A stretch of 64,000 bases of DNA from the NCBI GenBank assembly GCA_040767805.1, contig JAXGNU010000002.1, positions 132,756-196,755 on the forward strand. Direction: 5' to 3'. Below the pieces are notes generated by a model, which saw nothing but the letters and a program-made list of their open reading frames with translations, searched no databases and had not been told where the DNA came from. Both the position numbers and the translations under genes were made by a program. Source of the stretch: Thermovirgaceae bacterium (GTDB lineage Bacteria > Synergistota > Synergistia > Synergistales > Thermovirgaceae). The first letter of the stretch is position 1; each line of letters opens with the position of its first letter. This document shows, one piece after another, positions 28,666 through 50,014 of the stretch.

Positions 28666-29952
28666 GTGCCAACCGTGGCGAAGCTAAAGGAGCATCACAT
28701 CATGTGCGCGGAAGAACTAGCAAACCACAAAAGCATCAGGGATATAGCGTCCACCTTTTGCGTGGACGAAAGCACCTTGAGATACAGGCTCGAACGGCAT
28801 CGGACAGGAGCCGTGGATGGCAGATCGCTCCAGGAGGAAGCGTGCGCTCCCTTCCGACCCCTTGTCCTCGAGTGGATACAGGAGCAGGAAGGGCAGGAGC
28901 GGCCGGAATCCGTTCAGGCATTGTATGAGAGACTCTGCGCGGACCACGGATACACGGGGAGCTATATGAGTGTCTACAGGTTCGTCAAAAGGAGGCGCAA
29001 GGCCCCTTTCCCTGCCCCCTTCCGCCGGGTGGAGACCAAGCCGGGGGCGCAAGCTCAGGCCGACTGGCTTCAAAAGAAGATCTATATCCACGAACTTGGC
29101 GGAGAGACAAAGATCTCGGCATTCATAATGACCCTGTCCCACTCCCGGATGTGGTCCGTCGTCTGGAGCCGGAGCGAAAACATGCTCACCTGGCTTACCT
29201 GCCACAACAGGGCCTTCGAATTCCTGGGAGGTGTCCCGTCCACGGTCAGGATCGACAACCTCAAAACGGGAGTAGCCTGCGGCTGCGGAGCCTGGGCGAA
29301 GCTCAACGAAGGGTACGCCTCCTACGCGAAGCAGATGGATTTCGCCATAGACCCCCACAGGGTCAGGACACCCAGGGACAAGGGCAAGGCGGAACGTAGG
29401 GTCCAGGATGTGAAGACGCTCCAGATTACGGAGAAGGACCGGTTCGAGGATATGGAGGACCTGCAGGAGACCAGCACCCTCCGGATCCTTGCCAGATCAC
29501 GGAAGTTACTATGCCCAGTAACGGGCAAAAGCATCTACGACAGCTGGAACCTTGAAAAGCAGCATCTAAAGCCCCTTCCATTTTTTCTTCCTGTACCCTT
29601 CGATGTACAGGTCTCGAGGGAAGTTGGCCGGGATTGCCTTGTCTCCTTCGAGGGAAGACGTTACAGCGTCCCCTACACTTGGACTAAACGGACAGTCCAG
29701 GTCAGGGGGTGTACGGACACCGTCGAGATATGGGGAGAGGGGAAACTGCTCTGCACCTTCCCGCGCAAAACGGACTGCAGGCTTCTCATTGACCAGGGCC
29801 ACTACGAAGGGGCCAGCGAAGGCACGGGAAAGACCCCTGTTCCTCTTGGGAAAATTGGCAGGGAGATCGTAATACCCAGAAGCTGGGAGATAGAAGATGC
29901 CCCCAGGCGTTCCATAGATCGCTACGCGGAAGCTGTGGGTACACGGTCATGA
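28666..29952 (+). CDS. istA: IS21 transposase IstA
   Basis: ETKPGAQAQADW, LSHSR, RIDNLK, PRDKGKAER (DDE). Confidence 0.95.
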   Translation: MPTVAKLKEHHIMCAEELANHKSIRDIASTFCVDESTLRYRLERHRTGAVDGRSLQEEACAPFRPLVLEWIQEQEGQERPESVQALYERLCADHGYTGSYMSVYRFVKRRRKAPFPAPFRRVETKPGAQAQADWLQKKIYIHELGGETKISAFIMTLSHSRMWSVVWSRSENMLTWLTCHNRAFEFLGGVPSTVRIDNLKTGVACGCGAWAKLNEGYASYAKQMDFAIDPHRVRTPRDKGKAERRVQDVKTLQITEKDRFEDMEDLQETSTLRILARSRKLLCPVTGKSIYDSWNLEKQHLKPLPFFLPVPFDVQVSREVGRDCLVSFEGRRYSVPYTWTKRTVQVRGCTDTVEIWGEGKLLCTFPRKTDCRLLIDQGHYEGASEGTGKTPVPLGKIGREIVIPRSWEIEDAPRRSIDRYAEAVGTRS

Positions 29953-30740
29953 CCAGGCTTCAAGAGGCAGTGACCGGTCTGGACGCGAGCAGGTCTTTGC
30001 TGGAAGAGATGGGCTTTGAGCATGCCCAGCACCTCGTGGCGGAGCTCATGGAACAGGCCGTAAAGGACAATGCCTCCTACGGTGACTTTCTGGAAAAAGT
30101 TCTGAGGAGAGAACGTGAATACCGGGAAGAGCGCAGGATAAGGACCTCCCTGAAGTTGTCCGGCTTGCCCCAGGGCAAGACCCTTGAAAGCTTCGACTTC
30201 ACCTTTGGTCGGAGCGTGAACAAAAAGGAGATCGAGCTGCTTTCGACCTGCGAATACGCCAAGAGGAAGGAGAACATCCTCCTCCTCGGCCCGCCCGGAG
30301 TGGGCAAGAGCCACCTCGCCGCGGCGTTAGGGGTGCGGGCCGTCCAGAATGGCTTCTCCGTCTCCTGGCTGACTGCCGACGACCTGCTTTTTCGCCTCAG
30401 GCGGGACGAGGAGAACCCTTCCAGGCGAAACAGGAGGAGGAAATACCTCTCCTCGGGTGTTCTCGTGATAGACGAGCTGGGGTTTCAGGTCCTGGACCGG
30501 GGCGACGCCCACCTGCTCTTCAAGGTGGTAAGCGCCAGGTACGAAAGGGCGAGCACGATCATCACGTCGAACAAGAGCATACGGGATTGGCCGGAGATGC
30601 TTGCAGGAGACGAAGTCCTCACTACCGCTATCCTGGACAGGCTTTTACACCATTGCCACGTCGTTCATGTCGACGGAAGCAGTTACCGCCTCTGGGAGAT
30701 GGAACAACGGACCAGGCCCGCACCGCGGAAGGAGGGATGA
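29949..30740 (+). CDS. istB: IS21 helper ATPase IstB
   Basis: GPPGVGKSHLA, LVIDELG, RYERASTIITSN, AILDRLLHH; ATGA overlap with istA. Confidence 0.95.
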   Translation: MTRLQEAVTGLDASRSLLEEMGFEHAQHLVAELMEQAVKDNASYGDFLEKVLRREREYREERRIRTSLKLSGLPQGKTLESFDFTFGRSVNKKEIELLSTCEYAKRKENILLLGPPGVGKSHLAAALGVRAVQNGFSVSWLTADDLLFRLRRDEENPSRRNRRRKYLSSGVLVIDELGFQVLDRGDAHLLFKVVSARYERASTIITSNKSIRDWPEMLAGDEVLTTAILDRLLHHCHVVHVDGSSYRLWEMEQRTRPAPRKEG

Positions 30741-30917
30741 CCTGAACGGTCAAACATTTCAGGTTCACGAATCACCCCAACGCGTTCAAGAAGGAATGTG
30801 TATATCTGCGGGAAAGTGGATGTAAATTTACTGCGGGAATCTGGGTGTTAATTGACATTAGGGAAGAGAAACCGGCCCTCAGGGTACTAAGACTTCAGAT
30901 CGACGGAGGTTATTAGA

Positions 30918-32108
30918 ATGCCGGAGAAAAGGACATCCTGTGTTAACGAGAAAGAGATCATCGAACTTCTTCAAGACCTTGTCGCCATTCCCAGTTATCC
31001 TGGCATACCGGGGCAGGAGACAGGAGTGGCAGAACGCATCCACCTCTTCTTCAGAAATGAAAGGATCGATTCCGAGGTCATCCCGGTAGTCGATGGAAGG
31101 TGCAATGTTATTGCCAGGCTTCCAGGCGCCGGCGGGGGCAGATCCCTCCTTCTGACAGGCCATACCGATACCGTCCCTCCCTACGACATGGAAGATGCCT
31201 GCATTATGAAAATTGAAGGAGATAAATTGATCGGTCGCGGCGTTGTCGATATGAAGGGAGCGCTAGCCTGCATGATGCTCTCTATGGCTGCCATTAAAAG
31301 ATCCGGGATCGCATTGAGAGGTGACGTAGTATTCGCGGGCGTTATCGGCGAAGAGGGGAAGAGCGAAGGAACCTGCGCCCTTTTGAAAAATGGTTTGAAG
31401 GCAGATGCAGCCATTGTAGGAGAACCCTTCGGCTGGGATATCGGCATCGGCCAAAAGGGCCTTGAATGGTTTGAATGCAAGATCCTAGGGAAGGCAGTCC
31501 ATGGGGGAAAACAGAAGGAAGGGATCAATGCCATCTCCAAGGCTGGGAAGCTTATCAGCGCGATTGACCAGGAACTGGTCCCCAGGATAGAGAGCCGCAT
31601 ACACCCTGTCATCGGGGAGTCCTCCATGAATTACGGAATGATCAGTGGTGGCTTCCAACCCAGCACAGTTGCTGGTGAATGCCTTTTACAATTCGACCGG
31701 CGCTGGGTCCCGGGAGAAAAGTATGAGCTCGTTATAAGGGAGTACGAGGAGTTGATCGAAAAACTCTCAAAGGACGACCCGGAATTCAAAGCTGAACTGA
31801 GAGTCATGGATTCGAGCCTGATGGAAGACGGGTTTATCCATGAGGCTATGGAGTTGCCTTTGGACCACCCATTGGTAATACTGGCGGAAAGCTCCATCTT
31901 TGAAATAACCGGGCACCGGGCCGAAAAGAAGGCATTTCCTGCATGGACTGATGCAGGTCTTCTGAGCACTTATGGCGATATCCCTACGGTCATCCTAGGC
32001 CCCGGCGATCCTGGAAGCGCTCACACCTCGGAGGAATTCCTTGAGAGATCCTTCCTAGTCCCCTTCACGCGTCTCTATTCGCTGATGGCGGAAAAGTACT
32101 GTCAATGA
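30918..32108 (+). CDS. M20 family metallopeptidase (ArgE/DapE-like deacylase)
   Basis: GHTDTVP, GRGVVDMKG, GEE, VGEP, GKAVHG, GPG...AHTSEE. Confidence 0.9.
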   Translation: MPEKRTSCVNEKEIIELLQDLVAIPSYPGIPGQETGVAERIHLFFRNERIDSEVIPVVDGRCNVIARLPGAGGGRSLLLTGHTDTVPPYDMEDACIMKIEGDKLIGRGVVDMKGALACMMLSMAAIKRSGIALRGDVVFAGVIGEEGKSEGTCALLKNGLKADAAIVGEPFGWDIGIGQKGLEWFECKILGKAVHGGKQKEGINAISKAGKLISAIDQELVPRIESRIHPVIGESSMNYGMISGGFQPSTVAGECLLQFDRRWVPGEKYELVIREYEELIEKLSKDDPEFKAELRVMDSSLMEDGFIHEAMELPLDHPLVILAESSIFEITGHRAEKKAFPAWTDAGLLSTYGDIPTVILGPGDPGSAHTSEEFLERSFLVPFTRLYSLMAEKYCQ

Positions 32109-32244
32109 TGGTTCCACCACCTACACTTTCAAAGAATGACAACCGACAACCCTGGACGCGCTGAAAAGGAGTGATGCCATGGTTTTAGGTTGAAAGACCG
32201 GATCGGACAAATTCCAAGGCAACATCAAAAGGAGGGTGGACGAG

Positions 32245-33666
32245 ATGAGCAGTACCGGGACGGAAAAAGAGGGAACGAGCGGGAGGGTTTTCAAAGTCCC
32301 CCATGTCTATATCATTTTACTTACCGTCGTCGCAATATGCACAATACTGACCTACTTTGTACCGGCAGGCCTTTACGAAAGGGTTGCAGGTCCTGGTGGC
32401 AGGATGATAGTTGACCCGCTGAGTTTTGGCTACGTGGATCAGTCTCCCGTGGGTCTTTTCGACTTTCTCCTTGCGGTACCCAAGGGGATGGTTGAGATCG
32501 CCGAGATTATATTCTTCATCTTAATCGTGGGAGGTGCGTTCGGCGTCGTTAACGCGACCGGAGCGATCGAAGCCGGGATCGGAAAAATCACAAAGAAGAT
32601 GGCCGGCAAGGAGAGGGCGATAATACCCATTGTCATGATCCTCTTTTCCATCGGCGGGGCCATCTTCGGTATGGCCGAGGAGACTTTGCCCTTCGTGCCG
32701 ATCATGGTGACCCTCACGGTCGCTCTTGGTTTTGACTCGCTTACGGGAGCCGGCATCGTCCTCGCTGGAGCGGGCGCCGGATTCTCCGCTGCCTTCATGA
32801 ACCCCTTCACCGTGGGGGTTGCCCAAGGAATAGCTGAACTGCCGCTCTTTTCGGGTATGGGTTACAGGATATTCTGCTACATTTCAATGGTCGCTCTGAC
32901 AGTAGCTTTCATCTACTGGTATGCGGGGCGTGTCAAAAAAGAACCAACCCGGAGCCTTTTGTACGATATCGACAGGACCAGGGAAGAGGCCCTTGACCTG
33001 AATGTTATGAAGGAGTTCACCACCTCTCATCAACTCGTGCTTCTGGTGTTGGCGGGAACCATGGTCCTCCTGGTTTACGGCGTGATGAAATACGGATGGT
33101 ACATCCAGGAGATCTCAGGACTCTTCCTCGGAATGGCGATCCTGGCCGCTATCGTCGGCAAGCTCGGTTTAAACGGGTTCGCGATCAACCTGGCAGAGGG
33201 AATGTCTGCTCTCACCACTGGTGCCCTGGTTGTCGGATTCGCAAGGGCTATCCTGGTAGTCTTGGCCCAGGGAAACATCCTGGACACGATACTTTACGGA
33301 GCAGCTACGGCAGTTGCATCTCTGCCATCAATATTCTCGGCCATGGGGATGTACGTATTCCAGTGTCTTCTCAACTACATTATCCCCTCAGGCAGCGGCC
33401 AGGCGGCTGTAGCGATGCCTATCATGGCCCCGCTGGGGGACCTTGTTGGCGTCACAAGACAGGTCGCGGTCCTTGCATACCAGTTCGGCGACGGTATATC
33501 GAACATATTCACGCCGACCTCTGGTTATTTCATGGCTGGTCTTGCCCTTGCCAAGATCCCCTGGGATCGTTGGGCAAAATGGATCCTGCCGCTGATACTA
33601 CTTCAGTACCTGTTGGGAGCGATACTTGTCACGATAGCCCACTTCATCAAATTGGGACCCTTTTAA
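32245..33666 (+). CDS. YfcC family (C4-dicarboxylate anaerobic carrier-like) transporter
   Basis: PHVYII, VPAGLYER, GMAEET, NPFTVGVAQGIAELP, PSGSGQA, QFGDG. Confidence 0.9.
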   Translation: MSSTGTEKEGTSGRVFKVPHVYIILLTVVAICTILTYFVPAGLYERVAGPGGRMIVDPLSFGYVDQSPVGLFDFLLAVPKGMVEIAEIIFFILIVGGAFGVVNATGAIEAGIGKITKKMAGKERAIIPIVMILFSIGGAIFGMAEETLPFVPIMVTLTVALGFDSLTGAGIVLAGAGAGFSAAFMNPFTVGVAQGIAELPLFSGMGYRIFCYISMVALTVAFIYWYAGRVKKEPTRSLLYDIDRTREEALDLNVMKEFTTSHQLVLLVLAGTMVLLVYGVMKYGWYIQEISGLFLGMAILAAIVGKLGLNGFAINLAEGMSALTTGALVVGFARAILVVLAQGNILDTILYGAATAVASLPSIFSAMGMYVFQCLLNYIIPSGSGQAAVAMPIMAPLGDLVGVTRQVAVLAYQFGDGISNIFTPTSGYFMAGLALAKIPWDRWAKWILPLILLQYLLGAILVTIAHFIKLGPF

Positions 33667-33912: not shown

Positions 33913-34524
33913 TCACGGCCGGGGCACCAGTCTCTCGAAGCAGGCGAGGCATAGGACGCGGCCGTCGCAGAGCCTGGCCTTGGTCTCCATGACCAACTCT
34001 CCGCAGGCATCGCAAAGGACGCTCCTTTTCATGGGAGCGAAGGGTGGGGCTGGTTCCAGGGGCTCCCCGATGATGAAAAGGGATTCCGGTTCGGACTCGA
34101 GGATGCGGGCGCTCCGCTCCCTACGGAGTTCCTCGAACCTCTCCGACTCCTCCGGCGTCAGGGCGCCCTCGTTGCTCTTTTCCTGGAGGGTCCTGTACTC
34201 CTCGCCGCCTCCTCGCGCCGCGTCGGGGCGGCTCACTATCCTGAAGGACTTCCCGTCACTCCTCCTGTAAAAGCTGAAGGCCGACTTGCCCATGTCCTTC
34301 ACGATCATGTTGCCCTTCCCCACGGTGCAGCCCGTGAGGAACTGGATCGCGTCGACGGCGCAGTTATCGGTCTCCGCGACGGCGACGATCTCCTCGTCGG
34401 TGGTCCGTCCGAGCTTGTCCAGGACAACCTCCGATATCTTTATCCCCGTGGCCAGCCCCGGGCACCAGTGCCCGTGGAACGCTATAAGGGCCTTCAATTC
34501 CTCTTCAGGTATCTTCGATCCCAA
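33913..34524 (-). CDS. FmdE family protein with C-terminal zinc finger
   Basis: FHGHWCPGLATG, ETDNCAVDAIQFLTGCTVGKGN, CDACGE...LCLAC. Confidence 0.9.
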   Translation of the reverse strand: MGSKIPEEELKALIAFHGHWCPGLATGIKISEVVLDKLGRTTDEEIVAVAETDNCAVDAIQFLTGCTVGKGNMIVKDMGKSAFSFYRRSDGKSFRIVSRPDAARGGGEEYRTLQEKSNEGALTPEESERFEELRRERSARILESEPESLFIIGEPLEPAPPFAPMKRSVLCDACGELVMETKARLCDGRVLCLACFERLVPRP

Positions 34525-34683
34525 GTCATTCACTCCCTTATGTCGATCACCGGTCCCTTGCCGCCGGCCGATCAAAGGACCGGCCATCCTGGACCCACGA
34601 GGGAAGGGGTCCGACATATTCGTAAACCGCGGATCGCGGCTAGTGGATCTTGAGGCCTTAGGTCAGGACCCTCTCTTGTCCCT

Positions 34684-35100
34684 CTCTGTGTCTTTTGCGA
34701 TGAAAAAGGTCAGTCTTTGCTTCAGGCTCTACAGCCCTGCCACTGTATCCAATAAATAGGACCCTCTCTGTGTCCTCCGTGATGCAAATGGTTTGATTTT
34801 TCACATACAAATGGGTTTTCTCTGTGTCCTCTGTGTCCTCCGTGGTGAAAAAGGTCTGTCTTTGCTTTGGGCTTCTGCGGCCCTGCCCCTGTACCCAATA
34901 AATAGGATCCCCTCTGCGTCCACCGTGGTGCAAATGGTTTGATTTTTCACATACAAATGGGTTTTCTCTGTGTCCTACCCTAGTCCGGCGATTCGCCGGC
35001 TAGGGCACTTCGTCTGTGTCCTCCGCGGTGCAAATGGTTTGATTTTTCACAAATAAATGGGTTTTCTCTGCGTCCCCTGTGGTGAAAAAGGGTCTGCTTT
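34684..35100. repeat. Intergenic array of six degenerate 19-bp cores (CTCTGYGTCCTCCGTGGTG) separated by two recurring linker types
   Basis: Cores at 34684, 34766, 34829, 34912, 34966/35014 and 35066; linkers in order A,B,A,B,B,A(partial); A+B period 145-146 bp. Confidence 0.9.
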
Positions 35101-35120
35101 TCGCCCCTCAGGTCCGACCG

Positions 35121-35900
35121 TTACGCCCCAGGCGTCGCTTCCCCTGATTTCACGGGCACCACCACCGGGTACCCCTGGACCTTCTCTATCACGACGGGTA
35201 TGCCGTAAACCTCCCTCACCATCGCCGGCGTGATCTCCTCCAGGCCGGCCACGGCGAAGACCCGGCCGCCCTTCAAGAACACCACCCTGTCGGCGAAGCG
35301 AAGGGCGGAGTTTATGTCGTGCATCGTCATCACCGCCGCCATCCCGTGGCCCGTCACGATATGCCTGATGATGGACAAGATCTCCTGCTGGTTTTTGAGG
35401 TCCAGGCTGCTGGTGGGCTCATCGAGAAGGAGCACCTTCGGCTCCTGGACCAGGGCTCGGGCTATGCATACCTTCTGGAGCTCGCCGCCGCTCATCTCGT
35501 CGAGGTGCCTGAGCGAAAGATGTTCAAGTCCGAGGGTCCGAATGATAGCATCGACCTTCCGGATATCCTCCCTGCCGACCTTCCAGGTTATATGGGGCCT
35601 CCGGCCCAGGAGGATGGCGTCGAAGGCGGTCAACCTCCCCCCCTGCTCCTGCTGGGCGACGTAAGCAAGGTCCCTGGCTATTTCCAGCTTCTTCATGCGC
35701 AGGAGGTCCCTCTCCCCGACCCTGATGGCCCCTGTCGCCGGACGCAGGATGCCGTTCAGGCACTTCAGCAAAGTCGTCTTCCCCACCCCGTTCGGGCCGA
35801 GGACGGCCACCAGTTCGTTCCTTCCCAGGCTGAAGGTTACCCCCTCCAGTACGGGCCTGCTGTTGTAACGGAAGGAAACGTCGCGGACGTCTAGGATCAT
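35121..35900 (-). CDS. FecE/FepC-type ABC ATP-binding protein
   Basis: GPNGVGKTT, MSGGELQKVCIARAL, LLDEPT, MHDIN. Confidence 0.93.
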   Translation of the reverse strand: MILDVRDVSFRYNSRPVLEGVTFSLGRNELVAVLGPNGVGKTTLLKCLNGILRPATGAIRVGERDLLRMKKLEIARDLAYVAQQEQGGRLTAFDAILLGRRPHITWKVGREDIRKVDAIIRTLGLEHLSLRHLDEMSGGELQKVCIARALVQEPKVLLLDEPTSSLDLKNQQEILSIIRHIVTGHGMAAVMTMHDINSALRFADRVVFLKGGRVFAVAGLEEITPAMVREVYGIPVVIEKVQGYPVVVPVKSGEATPGA

Positions 35901-36967
35901 CGCCGGTACCCCCGGACGAGCAGGTAAAGGAACATGGGAGCCCCGACGAAGGAGGTCAGTATCGCCACGGGCAGGACATTGGGGGCTATCATAGTCCTCG
36001 CCGCCGTATCGGCCGCCAGGAGAAGGATGGAACCCATGATGATCGAACCCGGTATGAGGAAGCGGTTGTCGTCGCCGATGAGGCGCCTCACCATGTGGGG
36101 GCAGACGAGGCCCACGAAGCCGATAACACCCACGAAGGAGATTATCACCGCCGTGACCAGCGAGGCCAGGCTCATGCCGAGAAAGCGCACCATCCTGACG
36201 TTGACGCCGAGGCCGGCGGCCGTCTCGTCACCGGCGTCGATGGCATTGTAGTTCCACGAATTGAAGGCGAAGTAGAGGGCGCAAAACCCGGTAACGAGGG
36301 AAATGATGCCTATCTCTCTCCACCCGGCCCGGGAAAGGTCCCCGAAGGTCCAAAAGACCATGGCGGCCAACTGGACATCGTCGGCGAAGTACTGCAGGAA
36401 CATCGTCGCCGCCGAGCACAGCGAACCCATCGCCACGCCAGCGAGGATCATTACCTCGGGGGAGCCCCTGCGGAGCCTGGCGATCACGATCACCACGCCC
36501 GTAGCCGCCATGGCCGCCGCGAAGGCCAGGGCCGTGGTCATCCCCGGCCGCACCACGGTGATGGCGTCGGAGGCGGCGCTCTGCATGAACCCCGACCCCA
36601 GGACCATCACGGAGAAGGCCGCACCGAAGGCGGCTGCCTGGGAAATACCCAGCGTGAAAGGCGAGCCCAGGGGGTTGCCCAGGACGGACTGCATGACCAC
36701 GCCCGCCACGGAGAGACCCGCGCCGGCGAGGACCGCGGCCAGGACCTGGGGCAGCCTGATGTTGAAGACCACCACGTCGAGTTGCCTCGAGACATGCCCC
36801 AGGAAGAGGGTCCTCAACACCTCCACGGGCCGGTAGCTGACGGGTCCCGTCGCGATGGACAGGACCGCCAGAATGAACAGGAGGACCAGCCCCAGCAGGA
36901 GGAGGAGTACCTTCGTCCGGATGTATTTAACGTAACCCGCAGGGATGGTCCCTTCTTCCAGGTGCAC
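35897..36967 (-). CDS. FecCD-type ABC permease
   Basis: IRLP, MQSVLGNPLGSPFTLGIS, GVIGFVGLVCPH, GAPMFLYLL. Confidence 0.93.
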   Translation of the reverse strand: MHLEEGTIPAGYVKYIRTKVLLLLLGLVLLFILAVLSIATGPVSYRPVEVLRTLFLGHVSRQLDVVVFNIRLPQVLAAVLAGAGLSVAGVVMQSVLGNPLGSPFTLGISQAAAFGAAFSVMVLGSGFMQSAASDAITVVRPGMTTALAFAAAMAATGVVIVIARLRRGSPEVMILAGVAMGSLCSAATMFLQYFADDVQLAAMVFWTFGDLSRAGWREIGIISLVTGFCALYFAFNSWNYNAIDAGDETAAGLGVNVRMVRFLGMSLASLVTAVIISFVGVIGFVGLVCPHMVRRLIGDDNRFLIPGSIIMGSILLLAADTAARTMIAPNVLPVAILTSFVGAPMFLYLLVRGYRR

Positions 36968-36980
36968 TTCGCCCGGCCTC

Positions 36981-38111
36981 TTATAGGTCGATCTTTTTGA
37001 AGACCATGCTCCCAAAGCCCTCGTTCATCCGGTCGAAGACGGGCTTGCCCACCAGGAAGGAATAAATCTCGTCAGCCTTCTTCACCGGGTCGACGTCCTC
37101 GAACCTCTCCGGGTACAGGACTTTTCCTATGAAGTAGGCGTCGGCGAGGATGGAGCCCTGGTTCTGGGAGTACCAGTTGTAGGGCAGCACCCCGTAGACC
37201 TCGCCTTTCTCCACCGCCGACAGGACCTGGTAGGGGGCCTCGGTCCGCAACTGGTTCAGGGCGTTCACCTCGGCCCCTCCCTGGAGGGTGGAGAGGTCGA
37301 TGAATATCTTGTCCGGGTCCATCGACACCAGGCTCTCCACGGAGAACGTCGACTGCTGCAGCTGTTCGGAGGCCTTTCTCGAGGGATCGGCGGCGATGTT
37401 CCTGGCGTTCACGAACATGAAGGGAGGATAGGCCGGTTCGGTGGAGGTCATGCCGTGGGGCCCCTTGAAGGCCACGCCGCCGATGTAGCAGCTGGGCCTT
37501 TCATCCTCGGGGATATCGGCCGTCCTTTTGGCCAGGTCCCCGATGATCCCGTCAAAGAAGGCGATGACCTCCCTCGCCCTCTGCTCCTTCCCTATAACGC
37601 GCCCCATCAGGAGGAGCGTTTCGTCCATCTCCTTCTTGCCGATGCCCAGCTGCCCGTACTCCAGGATGATCACCGGTATCCCCGTCTTGTTCTGCAGTTC
37701 CACCGGGTCATGGCCCATTTTGCCGTTGACCTTGAATATGACCTGCGGAGCGGGGTCCAGGGCGACGATCAGCTCGGGGTTGTCGAAACCCCTGAACTCC
37801 CCGAAGAGGGGTTTATCCTTCAACTCGGGGTGGGCCAGGTAATAGGGGCGGGACTCGAACATGCTCCGTGACTTTTCCATGTCGTCCACGGCCACGGCCA
37901 GGTCCTGTCCCTGGAGGTAAACAAGGTAACGCAGGCACCCCGATCCGGAGCAGATCACCCGGGTCACCTTTTCAGGGACGGTGACCTCCCTGCCCCAGGA
38001 ATCGGTCACCGTGACCTCCGCGGCCGAAACGGCCGCGACGCCGCCGAGAAGCGCGAAGAGGACGATAACACCGGTGAGAACAAGGCGCTTGGGGGATACG
38101 AAGAAGGACAT
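36981..38111 (-). CDS. Metal-chelate ABC substrate-binding protein (FecB/BtuF-like)
   Basis: Signal peptide, VTDSWGREVTVP, LSAVEKGEVY, KVLYPERF. Confidence 0.88.
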   Translation of the reverse strand: MSFFVSPKRLVLTGVIVLFALLGGVAAVSAAEVTVTDSWGREVTVPEKVTRVICSGSGCLRYLVYLQGQDLAVAVDDMEKSRSMFESRPYYLAHPELKDKPLFGEFRGFDNPELIVALDPAPQVIFKVNGKMGHDPVELQNKTGIPVIILEYGQLGIGKKEMDETLLLMGRVIGKEQRAREVIAFFDGIIGDLAKRTADIPEDERPSCYIGGVAFKGPHGMTSTEPAYPPFMFVNARNIAADPSRKASEQLQQSTFSVESLVSMDPDKIFIDLSTLQGGAEVNALNQLRTEAPYQVLSAVEKGEVYGVLPYNWYSQNQGSILADAYFIGKVLYPERFEDVDPVKKADEIYSFLVGKPVFDRMNEGFGSMVFKKIDL

Positions 38112-38133
38112 CACTATCACCTCGAAGGCAAGA

Positions 38134-38161
38134 TTATTACGATTATTCTATTTCGTAATAA
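38134..38161. promoter_or_regulatory. Perfect dyad TTATTACG-N12-CGTAATAA (NikR-like 6-16-6 geometry) upstream of the ABC-fmdE genes
   Basis: AT-rich palindrome in a GC-rich background, about 20 bp upstream of the SBP start. Confidence 0.6.
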
Positions 38162-38288: not shown

Positions 38289-38654
38289 ATGTACCTCAAG
38301 AAGGATTTCTCCTTTGACGCCGCCCACAGGCTGGAGCACTACCACGGGAAGTGCGAGAGCCTCCACGGCCATACCTACCGCTTCCAGGTGACCCTGAAGG
38401 GGGAACCCGACCATGAGTCGATGGTGATGGACTTCGTGCGGCTCAAGGATTTGGTGGAGCGCCTCGTGGTGGAGCGCCTGGACCACTCGCTCCTGAACGA
38501 CACGATCCCCCAGCCCACTGCCGAGAACATCGCCCTCTGGATCTGGAGGCAGATAGAAAAGGAAGTAAGGGGCGACAACTGCGACCTCTACTCGGTCCAG
38601 GTCTGGGAGACGGCCACTTCGTCGGTCCTCATTCACGGCGAGGACCTTCGATAG
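38289..38654 (+). CDS. queD: 6-carboxytetrahydropterin synthase QueD
   Basis: FDAAHRL, CESLHGHTY, MVMDF, LDHSLLND, PTAENIA, WET. Confidence 0.93.
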   Translation: MYLKKDFSFDAAHRLEHYHGKCESLHGHTYRFQVTLKGEPDHESMVMDFVRLKDLVERLVVERLDHSLLNDTIPQPTAENIALWIWRQIEKEVRGDNCDLYSVQVWETATSSVLIHGEDLR

Positions 38655-38659
38655 GTACT

Positions 38660-39436
38660 TCAGTGCCGGTGACGGCGCCCGTCGCGCCGACGGCCGTGGT
38701 GGGCGTCACCGACCTCGAGGTCTGCCTCTTCCAGCAGCGTCCCCTGGAGGACGTTGGCCAGTTCCGTATCGGCGTCTCCAAGGCCGTATCCCGTCCTCAC
38801 GATGACGCCGGGCGGGATGGTACCGAACTCCGAGGCGAAAACCCTTGCCAGGGCCGCTCCCGTGGGAGTCGTCCTTTCCATGGGCTCTCCCAGGGAGAAG
38901 ACGGGGACCCCCTCCAGGAGCTTGGCCGTCGCCGGTGCGGGGACGGGCATTTCGCCGTGGGCGCACTTCACCGTCCCTGAACCCAAGTTCAGGGGTGAGA
39001 TGACCACCCTGGCCGGGTCTAGGGCTTCCAGCAGGATACAGGCCCCGACGATATCGACGATGGAATCGACGGCGCCCAGCTCGTGGAAATGGATCTTCTC
39101 CGGCGATGTGCCATGGACGGCGGCCTCGGCATCGGCCAGGAGCCGGAAGGCTTCAGAGGCCCTTGCCGCCGCTCCCGGGCCGATGGAGCTCTTTTCGATG
39201 ATCTCCATTATCTCCGCCAGGCCCCGATGGGGATGATCCTCCCCCGATGTGACCCGGGCGCTCAAGCCGGTGATCCCTCGCCTCTTCGTCCGGGTCACGC
39301 TTACCTCGTAGTTTTTGAGCGCCAGCCCATCGAGAAAGGGCTCCAACTCCTCCCGCCCAAGGAGGTCGAGCAGGACGCCCAGCGTCATGTCCCCGCTTAT
39401 ACCGGAGAAACAGTTGAGGTAAAGCGTCTTCTTCAT
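38660..39436 (-). CDS. larC: LarC N-terminal domain only (nickel insertase LarC1)
   Basis: CFSGISGDMTLG, IHFHELGAVDSIVD, CAHGEMPVPAPAT, ERTTPTGAA, GYGLG; ends before the C-terminal domain. Confidence 0.9.
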   Translation of the reverse strand: MKKTLYLNCFSGISGDMTLGVLLDLLGREELEPFLDGLALKNYEVSVTRTKRRGITGLSARVTSGEDHPHRGLAEIMEIIEKSSIGPGAAARASEAFRLLADAEAAVHGTSPEKIHFHELGAVDSIVDIVGACILLEALDPARVVISPLNLGSGTVKCAHGEMPVPAPATAKLLEGVPVFSLGEPMERTTPTGAALARVFASEFGTIPPGVIVRTGYGLGDADTELANVLQGTLLEEADLEVGDAHHGRRRDGRRHRH

Positions 39437-40215
39437 TCTTGTCGGTCCCCTTCCCCGTCCTTTGCTTTTCCCTTGTCAGCAATAAGTGCTGCGGTGAAGC
39501 CGGCGCCGACGCCGTTGTCGATGTTCACCACCGATACGCCCAGCGCGCAGGAGTTGAGCATCGTGACCAGGGGGCCGATGCCGCCGAGGGCTACCCCGTA
39601 GCCCACGCTGGTGGGCACCGCTACGACGGGGCAACCCACGATGCCCGCCACGACGCCGGGAAGGGCTCCGTCCATGCCGGCTACGGCGACGATCACATCG
39701 GCATCGAAAAGGACGTCAAGATGGGCCAACAAGCGATGCAGGCCCGCTACGCCCACGTCATAAAGCCTCCGGACCTCGCACCCCATCGTCTCGGCGGTGA
39801 CGGCCGCCTCCTCGGCGACGGGAACGTCGCCGCTCCCGCCGGTGACGATAAGGACCATACCCCTCGAGGGGGCTTCCCTCTCCGGCCACAGGCGTCCCAT
39901 CCCGGCCTTAGGCAGGTACTCAAGGCCCGGGAGGATTCCCAGGACCCACTGGTGCTGTTCCGGCGTCATCCTCGAGAACAGGGCCTTGCCGGGGCATTCC
40001 GCCAGGGCGCCGGCCACCCCTTCGAGCTGCTCCCTCGTTTTGCCCGGGCAGTAGATGATCTCGGCGAAACCGTTCCTCAAACCCCTATGGGTGTCCAGCT
40101 TGACCTCTCCCAGGTCCTTAAAGGGCAGCCCTTTCAGGGACCTGACGAAATCATCGACCTTTATCTCGTTCCTTCTCAACTTGTCCGCCAGCAGGCGGAG
40201 TTCCCTTTCATCCAT
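39433..40215 (-). CDS. larB: Nickel pincer cofactor carboxylase/hydrolase LarB
   Basis: LDTHR, EIIYCPGKT, DVPVAEEA, DVGVAGLHRL, AGMDGAL, PTSVGYG, VVNIDNG. Confidence 0.95.
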   Translation of the reverse strand: MDERELRLLADKLRRNEIKVDDFVRSLKGLPFKDLGEVKLDTHRGLRNGFAEIIYCPGKTREQLEGVAGALAECPGKALFSRMTPEQHQWVLGILPGLEYLPKAGMGRLWPEREAPSRGMVLIVTGGSGDVPVAEEAAVTAETMGCEVRRLYDVGVAGLHRLLAHLDVLFDADVIVAVAGMDGALPGVVAGIVGCPVVAVPTSVGYGVALGGIGPLVTMLNSCALGVSVVNIDNGVGAGFTAALIADKGKAKDGEGDRQE

Positions 40216-40446
40216 GGCCGCTGTTCGCTCCATTCCGCGGGGACGGGCCCTTCAAAGGGCGCTCCCGCCCCGGGGCTGCGGTTCATTATACTAAAAAAGG
40301 CCCTCGAAACGTGAATAAGTGGAGCTTGTGCTCGACGGGGATTTCTTGGCCGACATGCCTGCCGGTGGGCTTTGAGACCGGCGGGACGAAGATGTGGTAT
40401 CGTTTCCGGTGGTAGATCAAAAAGACAGGAAAGGGAAGGGACGCCG

Positions 40447-41655
40447 TTGGACAAGGCCGAAAGGGTCCGATCCTTCTTCAGGGATAACCCCTCCACCCTG
40501 GTGCTCCTCTCTGGAGGGGTCGACAGCGCCGTCCTGGCCCTGCTGGCCTCGGAAGGGGTCCCTGGGCGTGTCAGGGCTCTGACCTTCCGCACGCCCCTGG
40601 TAAAGGAGGATGAAGTGCGGATGGCCCGGGAGGCGGCCGAGAGGCTCGGCATCGACCTTCACGTGGAGGACGTCGATGTACTGCTGGCCCCGGAGGTCCT
40701 GTCCAACCCCCCTGACCGCTGCTACTTTTGCAGGAAAGCCCTCCACCGGGCAGCGAAAAGGTACGCTGAAGAAGCGGGGCTCTACCTCGTAGCCGACGGC
40801 CTCCAGGCCGATGACCTCGGAGATAATAGGCCCGGCGTGAGGGCAGCCGCCGAGGACGGAGTGGTCCATCCCCTGGCCGAGGCCGGCCTCACGAAACTGG
40901 AAGTGCGGGAACTGGCGAGGGAAGCGGGGCTGCCCAACAGCGAAAGGCCGGCGGCGCCCTGCCTCGCGACGAGGTTTCCCCCGGGCGTTCCCATCTCCCG
41001 GCCCTTGCTCGGGAAAATTGAAAGGGGGGAAGCCTTCCTGGCGGGGGAGGGTTTCGAGAACTCGAGGGTCCGCGTCTTCCCTCCGGGGTTGGCCTCCCTG
41101 GAGATAGAAAGGGGCGACCTGCCCCGGTTTTTCGACGGCCGGGAGAGGATCGTCGAAGCCCTGAAGGATATCGGTTTCCCCGTGGTGTCCCTTGACCTGG
41201 AGGGGCTGGAACGGGGCAAGATGGAGCGTTTCCAGGAGGTGGGCGGCATGGAGGAAGTCTGGCTCGTGGAGGCGTCCCTCGACGACGCCACGGGGGAGGA
41301 GATGGGAAGAGCCCTGGAGGTGCTCCAGGAGGTCTCCCTGGAGGCCCATATACTGCAGGGGCTGGGGAAAAAGGGAAGGCCCCTTTTCATCCTGAGGGCC
41401 CTGGCGCTGGCGGAGAACCTCGACGAAGTCCTGGACAGGTTCTTCAGGGACACTCCCACCATAGGGGTGCGCTACTGGCCCGTAGAGAGGGAAAAGATGA
41501 CCAGGGAGATTAAGGAGGGCGACCTGGTGGTGGACGACCTCAGGCTGCCCGTCAGGATAAAGATCTCCCGCTTCGGCGATATTTTGAAAGGCAAGGCCGA
41601 AGCGGACGACGTGGCGAAACACCTCTACGGGGGACAGCCGGAAAAGGACGACTGA
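40447..41655 (+). CDS. larE: LarE sulfur insertase fused to a LarC C-terminal domain
   Basis: SGGVDS PP-loop, DRCYFCRK, RPG, PAAPCLATR; continues in frame into EASLDDATGE, GKKGRP, TPTIGVR, VRIK, KAEADDV (LarC2-like). Confidence 0.9.
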   Translation: MDKAERVRSFFRDNPSTLVLLSGGVDSAVLALLASEGVPGRVRALTFRTPLVKEDEVRMAREAAERLGIDLHVEDVDVLLAPEVLSNPPDRCYFCRKALHRAAKRYAEEAGLYLVADGLQADDLGDNRPGVRAAAEDGVVHPLAEAGLTKLEVRELAREAGLPNSERPAAPCLATRFPPGVPISRPLLGKIERGEAFLAGEGFENSRVRVFPPGLASLEIERGDLPRFFDGRERIVEALKDIGFPVVSLDLEGLERGKMERFQEVGGMEEVWLVEASLDDATGEEMGRALEVLQEVSLEAHILQGLGKKGRPLFILRALALAENLDEVLDRFFRDTPTIGVRYWPVEREKMTREIKEGDLVVDDLRLPVRIKISRFGDILKGKAEADDVAKHLYGGQPEKDD

Positions 41656-42747: not shown

Positions 42748-42954
42748 CTTTTCCCCTCCCGTGACCTTTCGTGAAACGCCTGCCCTGTATAATAACGGAA
42801 CATCACCCCCGTCGCACCGCGGCGGCGGGCCAGGGACGGGACCCCTGCCCCGTTCCCATTGCGGTCCTTGCCGCCCCTCCTTCACCAAACCCAAGCCCCT
42901 TGAAGGAAGATGCTATACCCTTCGTCTAGATTTTAGGTGAGGCAACTCGTATCC

Positions 42955-42983
42955 TTGACATTTTTGTTGAACGACAATAAACT
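42955..42983 (+). promoter_or_regulatory. Sigma70 promoter for the OCD-family gene, overlapped by a shared operator-like motif
   Basis: TTGACA-17 bp-TAAACT; spacer and -10 carry TTTGTTGAACGACAATAAAC. Confidence 0.7.
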
Positions 42984-43105: not shown

Positions 43106-44098
43106 ATGTCGACGGTACTGCTGAGCCGTTCCGAAGTGAAAAGCCTCATGACCATGAAGGAAGTGGTCGAGATCGCCGAGAAGACCTTCAAGGGCTTCGG
43201 GGAGGGCACCACGATCAACCCCACCAAGGTGGGCCTGGACCTCGGGGAAACCGCCGAGTACCCCCCCTACGAGGGCTTCATGAACGCCATGCCGGCCTAC
43301 GTGGGCTGGCTGGACACGGCGGGGATCAAGTGGGCCGGCGGGTTCCTGGGGGAACGCAAAAGACTGGGCCTCCCCTACATTACTTCCCTGATACTCCTCA
43401 TCGACCCCAGGGTGGGCAACTTCAAGGCCGTCATGGACGGCGAGTGGATCACCTCCATGCGCACCGGCGCCCAGACTGCGGTCTCCCTCAAGTACCTCCA
43501 CAAGGGGCCGTCGATCCGGCTCGGCCTTTACGGGGCCGGGGGGCAGGGGCACACCCAGACCGAGGCCGTCGCCGCGGTCTTCGATATCGAGGAAGTAAGG
43601 GTATTCGACATCAACCGCGAGTCCGCCCTGAAGTACGCCGAAAATATGAAAGGGGTCGTCAAGGGCAAGGTGACCGTCGTCGACGACCCCAGGGACGCCG
43701 CCTGGGGGGACGCCATCGTCTGCGTCACCCAGTCCAAGGAGAAATTTCTCAGGAACGAATGGATCGCCCGGGGGGCGAACGTCTTCCCTATGGGCTCCTA
43801 CCAGGAGGTGGACGACGACTTCATACTGTCCGCCGATCGGGTTATCGTGGACCACGTCGGGCAGTGCCTTCACAGGGGGGCCCTCAAGGAGTTGGTCGAG
43901 GTCGGGAAGTTCCAGGAGTCGGACATCGACGCCACCATCGGCGAGGTCGTGGCGGGGAAGAAACCGGGACGGCTCTCCGACGACGACAGGGTCCTCTGTA
44001 TACCCATTGGGACGGGCGCCATGGACATAGCCGTCGCCACGGTCATACTCGAAAGGGCCAGGGAGAAAGGGATAGGGGGTCATTTCGACTTCGTGTAA
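43106..44098 (+). CDS. Ornithine cyclodeaminase/mu-crystallin family protein (paralogue 1)
   Basis: NAMPAY, GIKW, ITSMRTGA, GAGGQG, GTGAMDIAVA. Confidence 0.9.
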   Translation: MSTVLLSRSEVKSLMTMKEVVEIAEKTFKGFGEGTTINPTKVGLDLGETAEYPPYEGFMNAMPAYVGWLDTAGIKWAGGFLGERKRLGLPYITSLILLIDPRVGNFKAVMDGEWITSMRTGAQTAVSLKYLHKGPSIRLGLYGAGGQGHTQTEAVAAVFDIEEVRVFDINRESALKYAENMKGVVKGKVTVVDDPRDAAWGDAIVCVTQSKEKFLRNEWIARGANVFPMGSYQEVDDDFILSADRVIVDHVGQCLHRGALKELVEVGKFQESDIDATIGEVVAGKKPGRLSDDDRVLCIPIGTGAMDIAVATVILERAREKGIGGHFDFV

Positions 44099-44793: not shown

Positions 44794-44845
44794 CTATTCT
44801 AGCACCTGCAGGGCTCGGAAGACACCGATGAAGGAGGATCCTGCC

Positions 44846-46135
44846 ATGAAGGAATTCAATTTAAGGAAGGTCAAGGTCCACGAGGTGGCCTTCGGGGAAT
44901 ATACCGAGGTGAAAAAGGGTTGCCTTACCATCGATGCCGCCGCCCTCACCGCGGTACTGCTCGAGGACCGGCAGATGAAAAGCGTCGATATCCGGATCGC
45001 CGCCCCCGGCGATAGCGTCCGCATCGTCCCCGTAAAGGACGTCATTGAACCCCGGGCGAGACTTTCGGCAGAGGAGAACCCCTTCCCGGGCGTCTTTTCG
45101 GACCCCCACGTGGCCGGTGAGGGCGTCACCGTCTCCCTCGATGGGGTGTGCGTCGTGACGACGGGAAGAATGGTCAATTTCCAGGAAGGACTCATTGACA
45201 TGTCGGGACCCGGCGCGGAGTTCTCCATTTTTTCACGCAAGAACAACGTGGTCCTGGTCATCGAACCCGTCGAGGGGCTCACCAAGCACGAGCACGAGCG
45301 GATGGTCAGGATCGCCGGCCTGAGGGCCGCGGCCTTTTTGGGGCGGGCCGGTATCACGGCCGAGTGGGAAGAGGAACTACGCGTTCCCGGGGCGAACCTC
45401 CCCGGCCTTTACGGCACGGACCCCTCCCTTCCCAGGGTGTTGTACGTATGCCAGGTGATAGCCCAGGGGCTCCTCCACGACAACTACATCTACGGGCTCA
45501 ACGCCCAGGGGTGCCTGCCCCTCCTCATGACGCCGGGCGAGGTGCTCGATGGTGCCATCGTGAGCGGCAACTGCGCCGCCCCCTGCCACAAGCACACGAC
45601 CTACCATCACCAGAACAACCCCATCGTGGAGGACCTCCTCAAGGAACATGGTAAAACCCTCAACTTCCTGGGCGTCCTGGTCACCCCCGTCAAGACAGCC
45701 CTCGCGGAGAAGGTCAGGATCTGCACCCAGGCTTTCAAGACGGCCAAAATGCTGGGCGCCCAAGGCGTTATCATTTCCGAGGACGGCGGCGGCAACCCCG
45801 AGAACGACCTGATGCTCCTCGACCGCCTGCTCGAAGGCGCCGGGATAAAGACGGTGCTGGTCACCGACGAATATGCCGGCTCCGACGGGGCTTCACCGGG
45901 TTTGGCCGACAGCACGCCCGAGGCGGATGCCGTGGTCACCAACGGGAACGGGAACCAGAGGGTGATCCTGCCGCCCATGGATACCGTCATCGGGTGGCCC
46001 GAGAGCATCGACAGGATAACCGGCGGCCACGCCGGCAGCCTGGGCCCCGACGGCTCCGTGGACATGGAGATCGCGGGGATCATGGGATCCACCAACGAGC
46101 TCGGTCTTGAGAACCTTACGACCGTGGCGATGTAG
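44846..46135 (+). CDS. Glycine/sarcosine/betaine reductase component B proprotein (GrdE/GrdG-like)
   Basis: PVKDVIEPR, QEGLIDMSGPGA, DGAIVSGNC (pyruvoyl-forming Cys position), TYHHQNNP, GGNPENDL, TDEYAG. Confidence 0.9.
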   Translation: MKEFNLRKVKVHEVAFGEYTEVKKGCLTIDAAALTAVLLEDRQMKSVDIRIAAPGDSVRIVPVKDVIEPRARLSAEENPFPGVFSDPHVAGEGVTVSLDGVCVVTTGRMVNFQEGLIDMSGPGAEFSIFSRKNNVVLVIEPVEGLTKHEHERMVRIAGLRAAAFLGRAGITAEWEEELRVPGANLPGLYGTDPSLPRVLYVCQVIAQGLLHDNYIYGLNAQGCLPLLMTPGEVLDGAIVSGNCAAPCHKHTTYHHQNNPIVEDLLKEHGKTLNFLGVLVTPVKTALAEKVRICTQAFKTAKMLGAQGVIISEDGGGNPENDLMLLDRLLEGAGIKTVLVTDEYAGSDGASPGLADSTPEADAVVTNGNGNQRVILPPMDTVIGWPESIDRITGGHAGSLGPDGSVDMEIAGIMGSTNELGLENLTTVAM

Positions 46136-46147
46136 GAGGCGGAAAAG

Positions 46148-47455
46148 ATGAAAACCATCCGTGTGGTCCACTACCTCAACCAGTTTTTCGGCCGACTAGG
46201 CGGCGAGGAGATGGCGAACCTGCCTCCCCGCGTCGTCGACGGGCCCGTAGGCTTCGGCGTCACCCTGAAGGGCATCTCCGGCGGTAGGGTGGAGATCGTG
46301 AGAACGGTGATCTGCGGGGACAATTACGCCGCCGAGAACACCGGGGAACTGGCGAAGGAGGTACTCCGGTGGGTCTCTGAAGCCTCGCCGGGCCTCTTCA
46401 TCGCGGGGCCCGCTTTCGGTGCGGGCCGGTACGGCATCGCCGCCGGCACCCTCTGCAAGGAAGTGAGGGGAAAACTGGGGATACCCGCCGTGACGGCCAT
46501 GCACCCCGTCAACCCCGGCGCCGCGGTCACGGGCCCCGAGGTTTTCGTCGTCGAGGCGAAGGATACCGCCCAGGATCTGAAGAGGGTCCTCCCTCTCATG
46601 CTCGGTATCGGCATCAAGCTTGTCGACGGGCTCCCCATAGGGAGCCCCGGGGAGGAAGGTTACCTGCCCAGGGGCGTGCGCGTCAACGTCCGGGCCTCGG
46701 AAAGGGGTTCCACCAGGGCGGTGCGGATGCTACTGAAGAAACTCGCAGGGGAGCCCTTCGAGACGGAACTGCCCATGCCGACCTATGACAGGGTCCTCCC
46801 CGCGGCGCCGGTCCGGGACCTGGCGAAGGCCGCCATCGCTATCGGGACCGAGGGCGGCATCGTCCCCCGGGGGAACCCCGACAGGATCGAGGCCCATAAC
46901 GCCTCTAAGTGGTGCCGTTACGACATAGCTTCCCTCGATGATCTTGAAAAGGGCGACTACGAGGTGGCCCACGGCGGCTTCGACCCCGTCCCCGCCAACG
47001 ATGACCCCGACAGGGTGCTCCCCCTGGACGCGGCCCGCGCCCTGGAGAGGGAGGGCCGGTTCCGCAAGCTCCACGACTGGTACCCCGTCACGGTGGGGAA
47101 CGTCACCGCCGTGAGATCGGCCGAAAGATACGGCCGCCAGATGGGGGAAGCCCTGGCGGCCGAAGGCGTCGAGGGCGTGATCCTCACATCTACCTGAGGC
47201 ACGGGGACGCGTTGCGGAGCAACGCTGGCCAGGGAGATAGAGCGGACGGGCCTGCCCGCGGTGTTGATCACGGCCATACCTCCCATCGCCTTGACCGTCG
47301 GGGCGAACAGGGTCGTGCGGGGCGTGGCCATACCCCATCCGGTGGGCGACCCCAGGGAAGAGCCGGCCGTCGAACTCGAGATAAGGAAGAAACTCCTGGA
47401 GAAAGCCCTTCAGGCCCTTTGCGAACCAATAAAGGAGCAGACCCTTTTCGAATGA
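46148..47455 (+). CDS. Reductase component B selenoprotein (GrdB/GrdF-like), Sec at TGA 47195-47197
   Basis: VVHYLNQFFG..GGEE, ICGDNY, AGPAFGAGRYG, AHGGFD, DPDRVLPLD; frame continues ILTST-U-GTGTRCGAT...VGANRVV..IPHPVGDP to TGA 47455. Confidence 0.93.
47209..47225 (+). promoter_or_regulatory. Bacterial SECIS hairpin
   Basis: GCGTTGC-GGA-GCAACGC, starting 11 nt after the in-frame UGA, G at the start of the loop. Confidence 0.8.
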
Positions 47456-49033: not shown

Positions 49034-50014
49034 TCACAGCTCGACCCAGGTGCCGGTGTTCTTTTCAAGGGCCTTCCGGTAGATCAGGCGCCCGGTCATC
49101 ACGTCATGGCTGGCTATGCCCATCAGGACCGCGCCCCTGAGGCCCTTCCTCACCGGGGCGGCCTTTCCTGCGCAGATCTCTCCCATGTCCGCGTAGATCT
49201 CCGCCTCCAGGGGATACCCGTCCTGGAAGTAGACGCCCTGCTCCTGGGTCCAGAGGTACTGGTTCCTGTTATCGCATACGAAGGCTCCGCCCTTCATTAC
49301 CTCCTCGCGGAAGGCGGAATCGTAGTCGACGGCGATGCAGAGCACGTCCTCCTTCATCCACTCCCTCATGACGAAGCGGCGGGGGTGTTCAACGATGGGG
49401 GTGCAGGTGACCACCACATCGGCCCCCTTTACCGCCGATTCGGCCTTGTCCTCTATGACGAGGGGGGCCTTCGGGAAAAGGGGGGCCATGTCTTCCTGGA
49501 AGCGCTTGGCCTGCTCGGGGAAGACGTCATGGATGCGCACCTCCCTGATGCCGGGGAGGACTTCCTTCAACGCGGCCAGGTTGGTCCGGGCCTGGACTCC
49601 GAGGCCGATCATGGCGACCACCTCCGACCCCGGCGAGGCGAGGTGCCGGGCGCACACGCCCGACGCGGCGCCGATCCTCCAGGCCGTCATCCAGTTGGCG
49701 TCCATGACGGCCTTGATCATCCCCGTTTCGGAGTCGTTCATGCACCAAACGCCGTTGATATAGGGAAGACCCTTGGCCTGGTTGGGGGGGTAGCCGGCGG
49801 CCCACTTTATTCCCACCGCGTCTACCTCGCCGCCCATCCAGCAAGGCATGGCGTGGATAAAGCAGTCCTTCCGGGGGTGGACCCCGATCTTGGCCGGCAG
49901 TTCGCTCTGGTCAAGCCCGTTAAGCCGGAACCCTTCTTCGACGGCATCCATGACCTCCGTCATGGGTATCTCCAGGGATTCCACATCCCTCTTCGAGAGC
50001 CAAAGAGCTTTCAT
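49034..50014 (-). CDS. Ornithine cyclodeaminase/mu-crystallin family protein (paralogue 2)
   Basis: PAKIGVHP, HAMP, GIKW, MTAWRIGAAS, IGLGVQA, GIASHD. Confidence 0.88.
   Translation of the reverse strand: MKALWLSKRDVESLEIPMTEVMDAVEEGFRLNGLDQSELPAKIGVHPRKDCFIHAMPCWMGGEVDAVGIKWAAGYPPNQAKGLPYINGVWCMNDSETGMIKAVMDANWMTAWRIGAASGVCARHLASPGSEVVAMIGLGVQARTNLAALKEVLPGIREVRIHDVFPEQAKRFQEDMAPLFPKAPLVIEDKAESAVKGADVVVTCTPIVEHPRRFVMREWMKEDVLCIAVDYDSAFREEVMKGGAFVCDNRNQYLWTQEQGVYFQDGYPLEAEIYADMGEICAGKAAPVRKGLRGAVLMGIASHDVMTGRLIYRKALEKNTGTWVEL

Follow-up and report, generated by a model that had tools for sequence, protein, structure and literature searches.

A LarE-LarC2 fusion beside a free LarC1 suggests a nickel-pincer pathway with redrawn protein boundaries in a Thermovirgaceae bacterium

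We asked how synthesis of the nickel-pincer cofactor could be served by a locus in which the two halves of LarC are encoded on opposite strands and one of them is fused to LarE. LarC has been called the sole natural cyclometallase known so far. In the enzyme of Moorella thermoacetica, a LarC2 hexamer binds cytidine triphosphate (CTP) and is proposed to CMPylate (attach cytidine monophosphate to) the precursor P2TMN (the mononucleotide of pyridinium-3,5-bisthiocarboxylic acid), and LarC1 inserts nickel; the 2026 structure leaves open how the CTP and nickel sites cooperate (PMC13510736). The locus studied here lies in a 64,000-nucleotide stretch of a Thermovirgaceae bacterium (phylum Synergistota; assembly GCA_040767805.1, contig JAXGNU010000002.1, positions 132,756 to 196,755), hereafter the window. 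At window positions 38660..41655, larB and larC1 on the minus strand diverge from a single open larE-larC2 frame on the plus strand. We consider it somewhat more probable than its negation that these genes encode a complete nickel-pincer pathway with redrawn protein boundaries, in which the fusion would make the CMPylated intermediate and free LarC1 would insert nickel.

The larC1 gene (38660..39436, minus strand) encodes 258 amino acids (aa) that exceed the TIGR00299 cut-off, are homologous to M. thermoacetica LarC (chain 12BI), and match positions 1-238 of the 375 in PF01969 (Ni_insertion), followed by a His/Arg-rich tail. Its start is overlapped by larB (carboxylase/hydrolase; 39433..40215, minus strand; NF033503, 260 bits, cut-off 175). 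Positions 40216..40446, which part the oppositely facing larB and larE, are intergenic and gave nothing useful in a promoter scan; relatives share this back-to-back layout. The fusion open reading frame (ORF; 40447..41655, plus strand; 402 aa) has no stop codon between its two domains: LarE (40447..41223; TIGR00268 at aa 3-259, 235 bits, cut-off 150), whose top Foldseek matches are LarE structures, and LarC2, the CTP-binding half, of a short-tailed lineage (41248..41655; NF052512 at aa 271-390, covering model positions 1-118 of 118; match to structure 6BWO, E 9e-7). LarB, LarE and both LarC domains thus all lie above their NCBIfam cut-offs, and the fusion tail covers PF01969 positions 241-362, complementary to larC1. 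An earlier note on this DNA, made from the letters alone, had read LarC as ending at 258 aa before its C-terminal domain, with the rest fused to LarE, and the domain models bear this out; the tail motifs it listed (EASLDD..GE, KKGRP, TIGVR, VRIK and AEADD) are all present in the fusion, with LarC homology shown by the whole NF052512 match. The AlphaFold model of the fusion has two well-formed domains (mean predicted local distance difference test score, pLDDT, 94.1; predicted template modelling score 0.75), with a short linker block at 66.

The LarC encoded here is not a canonical one-chain member, as no chain carries LarC1, linker and LarC2 together; the system appears, from sequence, to be a re-cut version of the known LarB/LarE/LarC pathway. 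In Lactiplantibacillus plantarum the larC1 and larC2 frames break at the same domain boundary (PMC13510736; LarC2 structures 6BWO/6BWQ). Those ORFs are adjacent and, as the earlier note said and PMC13510736 states, are joined into one protein by programmed frameshifting, whereas here the pieces lie on opposite strands and point apart, a geometry that rules out such a frameshift.

The larE-larC2 fusion is confirmed as real and is no artefact of a lost stop codon, for which the earlier note had proposed a check at the junction. When 41 genomes were searched with the whole fusion protein, a single open match across it was found in four: this genome (G000), two of the same genus (G004, 94% identity; G001, 87%) and G007 (45%). 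Both domains also occur together in five of 47 homologue clusters from JGI, NCBI, Logan and ENA (29, 4, 4, 4 and 23 sequences; 64 in total); close LarC2 homologues are labelled Thermovirgaceae or Synergistales by their sources, and the sequencing runs matching the locus are sludge and digester metagenomes. Contigs of all four DNA runs compared, from four studies, cross the junction without difference, each run being a possible source of this DNA and hence not independent. From a close strain, two contigs of RNA libraries (X16 record 14 and X17 record 22) span it gap-free; these runs consist of contigs only, which show neither strand nor level and so no transcript, and X18, which gave small pieces only, is excluded from the count. 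Exactly two LarC pieces are found in each of G000, G001 (96% complete) and G004 (87% complete), and in G000 (80.6% complete) larC1 and the fusion are the sole PF01969 matches, with no second C2. Ratios of nonsynonymous to synonymous substitution rates (dN/dS) against G004 and G001 are 0.28 (resting on a dS of only 0.13) and 0.12 for LarC1, 0.12 and 0.14 for LarE, and 0.04 and 0.08 for LarC2; purifying selection is acting on all three parts.

The catalytic residues of LarC1 and the motifs of LarE are retained. With numbering moved by hand from the alignment to chain 12BI, LarC1 keeps the His patch and acidic pocket (D16, R71, E104, H108, H116, H118, E119, D124, D128, H160 and E187) and has neither H53 nor H226, of moderate effect in M. 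thermoacetica, nor H72, of no effect there. Free LarC1s keep, in 26/26 cases, ten acidic and His residues on which full activity of the M. thermoacetica enzyme depends (PMC13510736), and R71 in 22 of the 26. LarC2, whose predicted CTP/Mn site was judged by near-invariant positions, keeps 13 of 19 of these, including all charged ones but one (D12, D13, K41, K42, R44, P45, T69, T71, G73, R75, R86, K105 and E118). LarE carries the P-loop SGGVDS at S22-S27 and a CXXC-C motif (C92, C95 and C172), from which it is inferred to be of the catalytic [4Fe-4S] type that this motif defines (PMC9283937). The [4Fe-4S] LarE of Thermotoga maritima has both motifs, the cysteines at identical numbers, and is a stand-alone dimer (PMC9283937), whereas LarE here shares its chain with a domain that forms hexamers in the structures solved.

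In our proposed mechanism, the LarE-LarC2 fusion would sulfurate the LarB product and then CMPylate P2TMN, and free LarC1 would take the resulting dinucleotide, P2TCD, in trans and insert nickel. M. thermoacetica LarC (cryo-electron microscopy, PDB 12BI-12BL) shares with the present proteins the LarC1 His patch, the acidic pocket and the LarC2 core motifs; it is one chain with a 13-residue linker reported to be critical, whereas here there is no linker and the halves come from different lineages. Transfer in that enzyme is proposed to run through a cleft beside the linker, with the CTP and nickel sites each about 25 Å from the cleft between them (PMC13510736). Because LarE takes the N-terminal place that LarC1 holds on LarC2 in the canonical hexamer, P2TCD would be handed over by release or brief contact and not through the linker cleft. 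P2TCD accumulates under nickel shortage, and L. plantarum LarC can turn its analogue P2TAD into cofactor (PMC13510736), so that LarC can take a ready-made dinucleotide; the two observations make handover to free LarC1 plausible. The earlier note had held that the nickel insertase must assemble in trans: the halves must indeed act in trans, but their assembly need not be obligatory, and it is no less likely that the intermediate is released. It had also taken the fusion as a hint of channelling to nickel insertion, which does not hold, since CMPylation is assigned to LarC2 and nickel insertion to LarC1 (PMC13510736); what the fusion joins is thus sulfur insertion and CMPylation, and nickel insertion stays outside it.

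Several observations weigh against this proposal. Every linker change made in M. thermoacetica LarC (deletion, shortening, stiffening or replacement) left <10% activity (PMC13510736), which speaks for a tether in that enzyme. The window LarC1 departs at 3 of 47 near-invariant positions, one of them R231, a residue of the trimer interface in M. thermoacetica (PMC13510736), the canonical enzyme being a hexamer flanked by LarC1 trimers: position 231 is Gln here and Arg in 196 of 198 full-length LarCs. It also has F180, A238 and E241 at cleft positions where alanine variants lost >80% activity. The fusion LarC2 departs at 6/19 near-invariant positions and, like its whole lineage, has no counterpart of the last helices of canonical LarC2; LarE departs at 9/47. 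The fusion is rare, being found in one of 159 LarE ORFs across 160 loci, and no LarA-family match was found in G007 (89% complete) or in the Clostridia genome G133, the two other genomes in which we describe the arrangement as separately derived below. The support comes from genes and sequence comparison, and activity in trans is a prediction.

Relatives point to how the arrangement came about. Most same-family loci have the same layout, but there larE stops and is followed by a gene of 360-370 aa, the first 230 residues of which are a decayed LarC1 and the last 130 LarC2. This pairing of a pseudo-LarC1, its nickel ligands all lost, with intact LarC2 is seen family-wide (for example, L034:4507-5607 and L039:8285-9403). 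We compared 56 N-domains, among them 26 free LarC1s and 20 decayed domains (one intact row, from G091, was set aside); H108 and H160 are kept in 0/20 of the decayed N-domains still fused to C2. The decayed domain aligns with LarC1 along its full length (hhalign 99.9%, a score that includes C2) and is moderately constrained, with dN/dS of 0.24-0.40 in five pairs versus 0.05-0.13 for the attached LarC2. Its fold model lies mostly at pLDDT 80-90, and a fold search with the pseudo-C1 protein (library to April 2026) returned LarC2 matches only and no LarC1 structure. Of 19 genomes with a decayed LarC, 16 carry a full free LarC1, G016 has a partial one, G012 (80% complete) has none and G018 was outside the search.

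In the tree, the window LarC2 nests among the pseudo-C1-C2 proteins, within the lineage of the full-length f5/f9 LarCs; in G022, G026, G031 and G040 the sole LarC match is an intact full-length member of this lineage. The window LarE likewise groups with carriers of pseudo-C1-C2. A quick tree (44 of the 56 rows used, 12 pseudo-C1 rows omitted) sets the window LarC1 apart, across a split with a support of 100. LarC1 and LarC2 belong to different tree lineages, so each half goes back to a different larC gene. The earlier description of a split LarC therefore stands as to the two pieces but not as to their being one larC cut in two. At the DNA level, relatives' larE ends GAG GTG, followed within a few bases by the start of the downstream gene; the window junction retains GGAGGT-7 nt-ATG, and the larE stop and dead domain are gone. 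Loss of a single stop codon was rejected as the origin of the fusion, because ~680 bp of pseudo-C1 lies between larE and LarC2 in relatives. The trees are unrooted and we infer the order of events: an ancestor would have carried two larC genes of different lineages, one of which would have lost its C2 half to become free LarC1; in the other, the C1 half would have decayed to give a pseudo-LarC1-LarC2 gene downstream of larE, and deletion of the dead domain with the larE stop would then have produced the fusion.

Of the 20 decayed domains, 18 keep the interface residue R231; at this position, 19 of the 26 free LarC1s, which form one clade and so reflect one event, have Gln or His. Because the arginine survives in the decayed domains and is lost from many free LarC1s, the dead domain may once have docked live LarC1, which suggests pseudo-LarC1 as a candidate adaptor pseudoenzyme.

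We then considered how widely LarC is divided or fused. Across the order, LarC is present in 125 of 131 genomes, with a stand-alone N-half in at least 35 (counted among the matches listed, with 30 further ones beyond these), and in many genomes larC1 and larC2 lie on different contigs. A split LarC is not new, because NCBIfam already has a LarC2 domain model. Stand-alone LarC2 (the NF052512 model; MK0293 of Methanopyrus kandleri, PDB 3C19, with a fold match of 177 residues; and the split pairs of family f4) is likewise apart from LarC1, but it is free, whereas the window LarC2 is fused to LarE. In G008, G034, G043 and G062, free larC1 is followed 2-3 kb downstream by a divergent LarC2-like ORF of 170-190 aa (PF01969 ~245-364; L037:5223-5747, L078, L079 and L081), which forms its own long-branch clade. 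No published LarE-LarC2 fusion or two-lineage origin of LarC was found in the literature searched, some primary LarC papers being outside that search, and the words fusion, fused and split are absent from PMC13510736.

A profile search over 1.84 billion representatives, with a profile built to favour LarE-LarC2, returned among its best 150 representatives seven LarE-LarC2 fusions and four in which LarE is joined to whole LarC, besides single cases of a partial LarC2-LarE and of LarE-LarB. Four of the seven LarE-LarC2 clusters are single sequences on one contig, and the linkers vary from ~10 to 40 residues. In the LarC-LarE fusions P0057, P0059 and P0064 and the LarE-LarC fusion P0056, LarE and LarC2 share a chain, as here, but LarC1 stays tethered to LarC2. 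With P0108, these represent whole-LarC/LarE fusions in both orders and a LarE-LarB fusion; the P0064 cluster has 92 members, some labelled Clostridium baratii. The G007 fusion is independent: the approximately unbiased (AU) test rejects a single clade (p 0.021), and its LarE and LarC1 also group elsewhere. In G007, larB-larC1-larE::larC2 lie on one strand (L033:6425-9488), a layout that resembles an insertion of larE within the larC linker, and the genome holds a decayed LarC elsewhere (L092). In G133, larE-larC2 is on one contig and larB-larC1, with a true stop, on another; the same pair of free LarC1 and LarE-LarC2 arose separately in these two genomes. On a short, poorly resolved tree, built without weak, partial or near-duplicate C2 rows and with a sample of 30 of the 78 reference rows, 11 fusion rows need at least eight changes, and the supported branches allow at least four origins.

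Recurrence raises the possibility that the fusion has been positively selected for channelling labile P2TMN from LarE to the CTP site, a reading compatible with our proposal that we hold to be possible though clearly less probable. It would explain why the joined activities are consecutive steps and why such fusions arose at least four times, and the LarE-LarC2, LarE-whole LarC and LarE-LarB counts in the best 150 point the same way. However, larE and larC are often neighbours, so that fusions form easily; the single-sequence clusters and variable linkers speak against a selected architecture, and the profile's bias toward LarE-LarC2 leaves the counts without a fair LarE-LarC1 comparison; a control search for that fusion, a weak test, found none among 120 long LarC1 homologues, the best of 6,360. 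It may be that selection tolerates the fusion and does not favour it.

An unlikely alternative to release of P2TCD is that an internal start at the junction yields free LarC2, which would form mixed hexamers with the fusion whose open faces dock LarC1 canonically. The earlier note had pointed to a ribosome-binding site (RBS) there, from which LarC2 may also be made on its own, and GGAGGT (41235-41240), 7 nt and ATG 41248 (Met268) are indeed present (41235..41250, plus strand). Of five lar-region starts tested, this RBS is the strongest (-11.6 kcal/mol); the Met is kept in all five homologue clusters, and RBS and ATG together in G004 and G001. LarC2 hexamers form without LarC1, and the M. thermoacetica linker data favour close coupling (PMC13510736). 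On the other side, the RBS and ATG are, by comparison with relatives, the inherited start of the deleted downstream larC gene; GGAGG before an in-frame start codon occurs six times in the fusion ORF; the independent G007 fusion has neither Met nor RBS at its junction; and sister lineages cap every LarC2 with pseudo-C1 and have no evident internal start. A complex prediction (the fusion with two LarC2 and a LarC1 partner) gave no answer (0.00 against a mark of 0.32) and was counted neither way.

It is improbable that LarC1 alone acts on adenylated P2TAD to yield the nickel-pincer adenine dinucleotide (NPAD) or mononucleotide (NPMN) without CTP, with LarC2 in another or minor role. P2TAD is accepted by L. 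plantarum LarC (PMC13510736), PMC13524815 cites an ornithine cyclodeaminase that depends on NPAD, and two genes of the ornithine cyclodeaminase/mu-crystallin family lie at 43106-44098 and 49034-50014 (each below every NCBIfam cut-off), but LarC2 is the most constrained part of the system (dN/dS 0.04-0.08), LarB is canonical, and a cyclodeaminase-like gene adjoins the locus in only one of 20 relative stretches mapped (G004). That the pieces are left-overs beside an intact larC in the unassembled fifth of this incompletely recovered genome (80.6%), or an assembly error, is very improbable given the two-piece state of the more complete G001 and G004, purifying selection on every part and fusions in five clusters from four sources.

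Beyond release of P2TCD to free LarC1, we tentatively put forward, at somewhat less than even chance, a broader view: LarC would consist of two enzymes that can be separated, one a cytidylyltransferase acting on P2TMN and the other a nickel insertase, with the CMPylated intermediate able to pass between them untethered; LarE-LarC2 would be a new bifunctional enzyme (sulfur insertase and cytidylyltransferase) evolved repeatedly; and ancestral pseudo-LarC1 would have docked live LarC1. A linker-free locus is a natural experiment in which the tethering requirement is directly testable, and the half-reactions, encoded as separate proteins, can be assayed singly. This could permit bulk P2TCD production and the study of nickel insertion without CTP chemistry. 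The locus also offers a clean staged example in which two paralogues each lose half, with a pseudo-domain stage and refusion, and such genomes are easily mis-scored as having no larC or as carrying pseudogenes.

The surroundings fit a nickel context. A BtuCD/FecCD-type ABC (ATP-binding cassette) transporter (binding protein, permease and ATPase; 35121..38120, minus strand), likely a nickel importer of unusual class, adjoins the lar genes in most same-family loci. Upstream of its operon lies a NikR-type palindrome, TTATTAC-N14-GTAATAA (38134..38161); the NikR consensus is GTGTTAC-N13/14-GTAACAC (PMC545781), and a similar box occurs in 8/8 relatives examined, in one as a perfect GTGTTAC-N14-GTAACAC. 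The genome carries a nikR gene and a second box (G000 C12:25902). The transporter and an FmdE-like gene together occupy 33913-38120 on the minus strand, with the box near a promoter-like site. A client gene of the LarA family is present on contig C17 (PF09861 above its cut-off, below each LarA-subfamily cut-off), and LarA-family genes are found in G000, G001, G004 and G002.

Other neighbours were noted in passing. A queD-like gene (38289-38654) ends 5 bases from the larC1 stop, head to head, and several relatives carry a FolK-FolE2 fusion between the two (for example, L034:8275-9753). No tRNA or Rfam family was found in the window, and in the intergenic stretch 42895-42959 RNA-library contigs pile up and fold back. 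An IS21-type IstB ATPase, then an M20 peptidase and a DcuC-family transporter, occupy 29949-33666, within a stretch of lower guanine-cytosine content (~54%, 24-34 kb). Genes for glycine/sarcosine/betaine reductase component B lie at 44828-47455; GrdB's frame continues past TGA at codon 350 (STUGTG) and reaches ~435 aa, as expected for selenocysteine.

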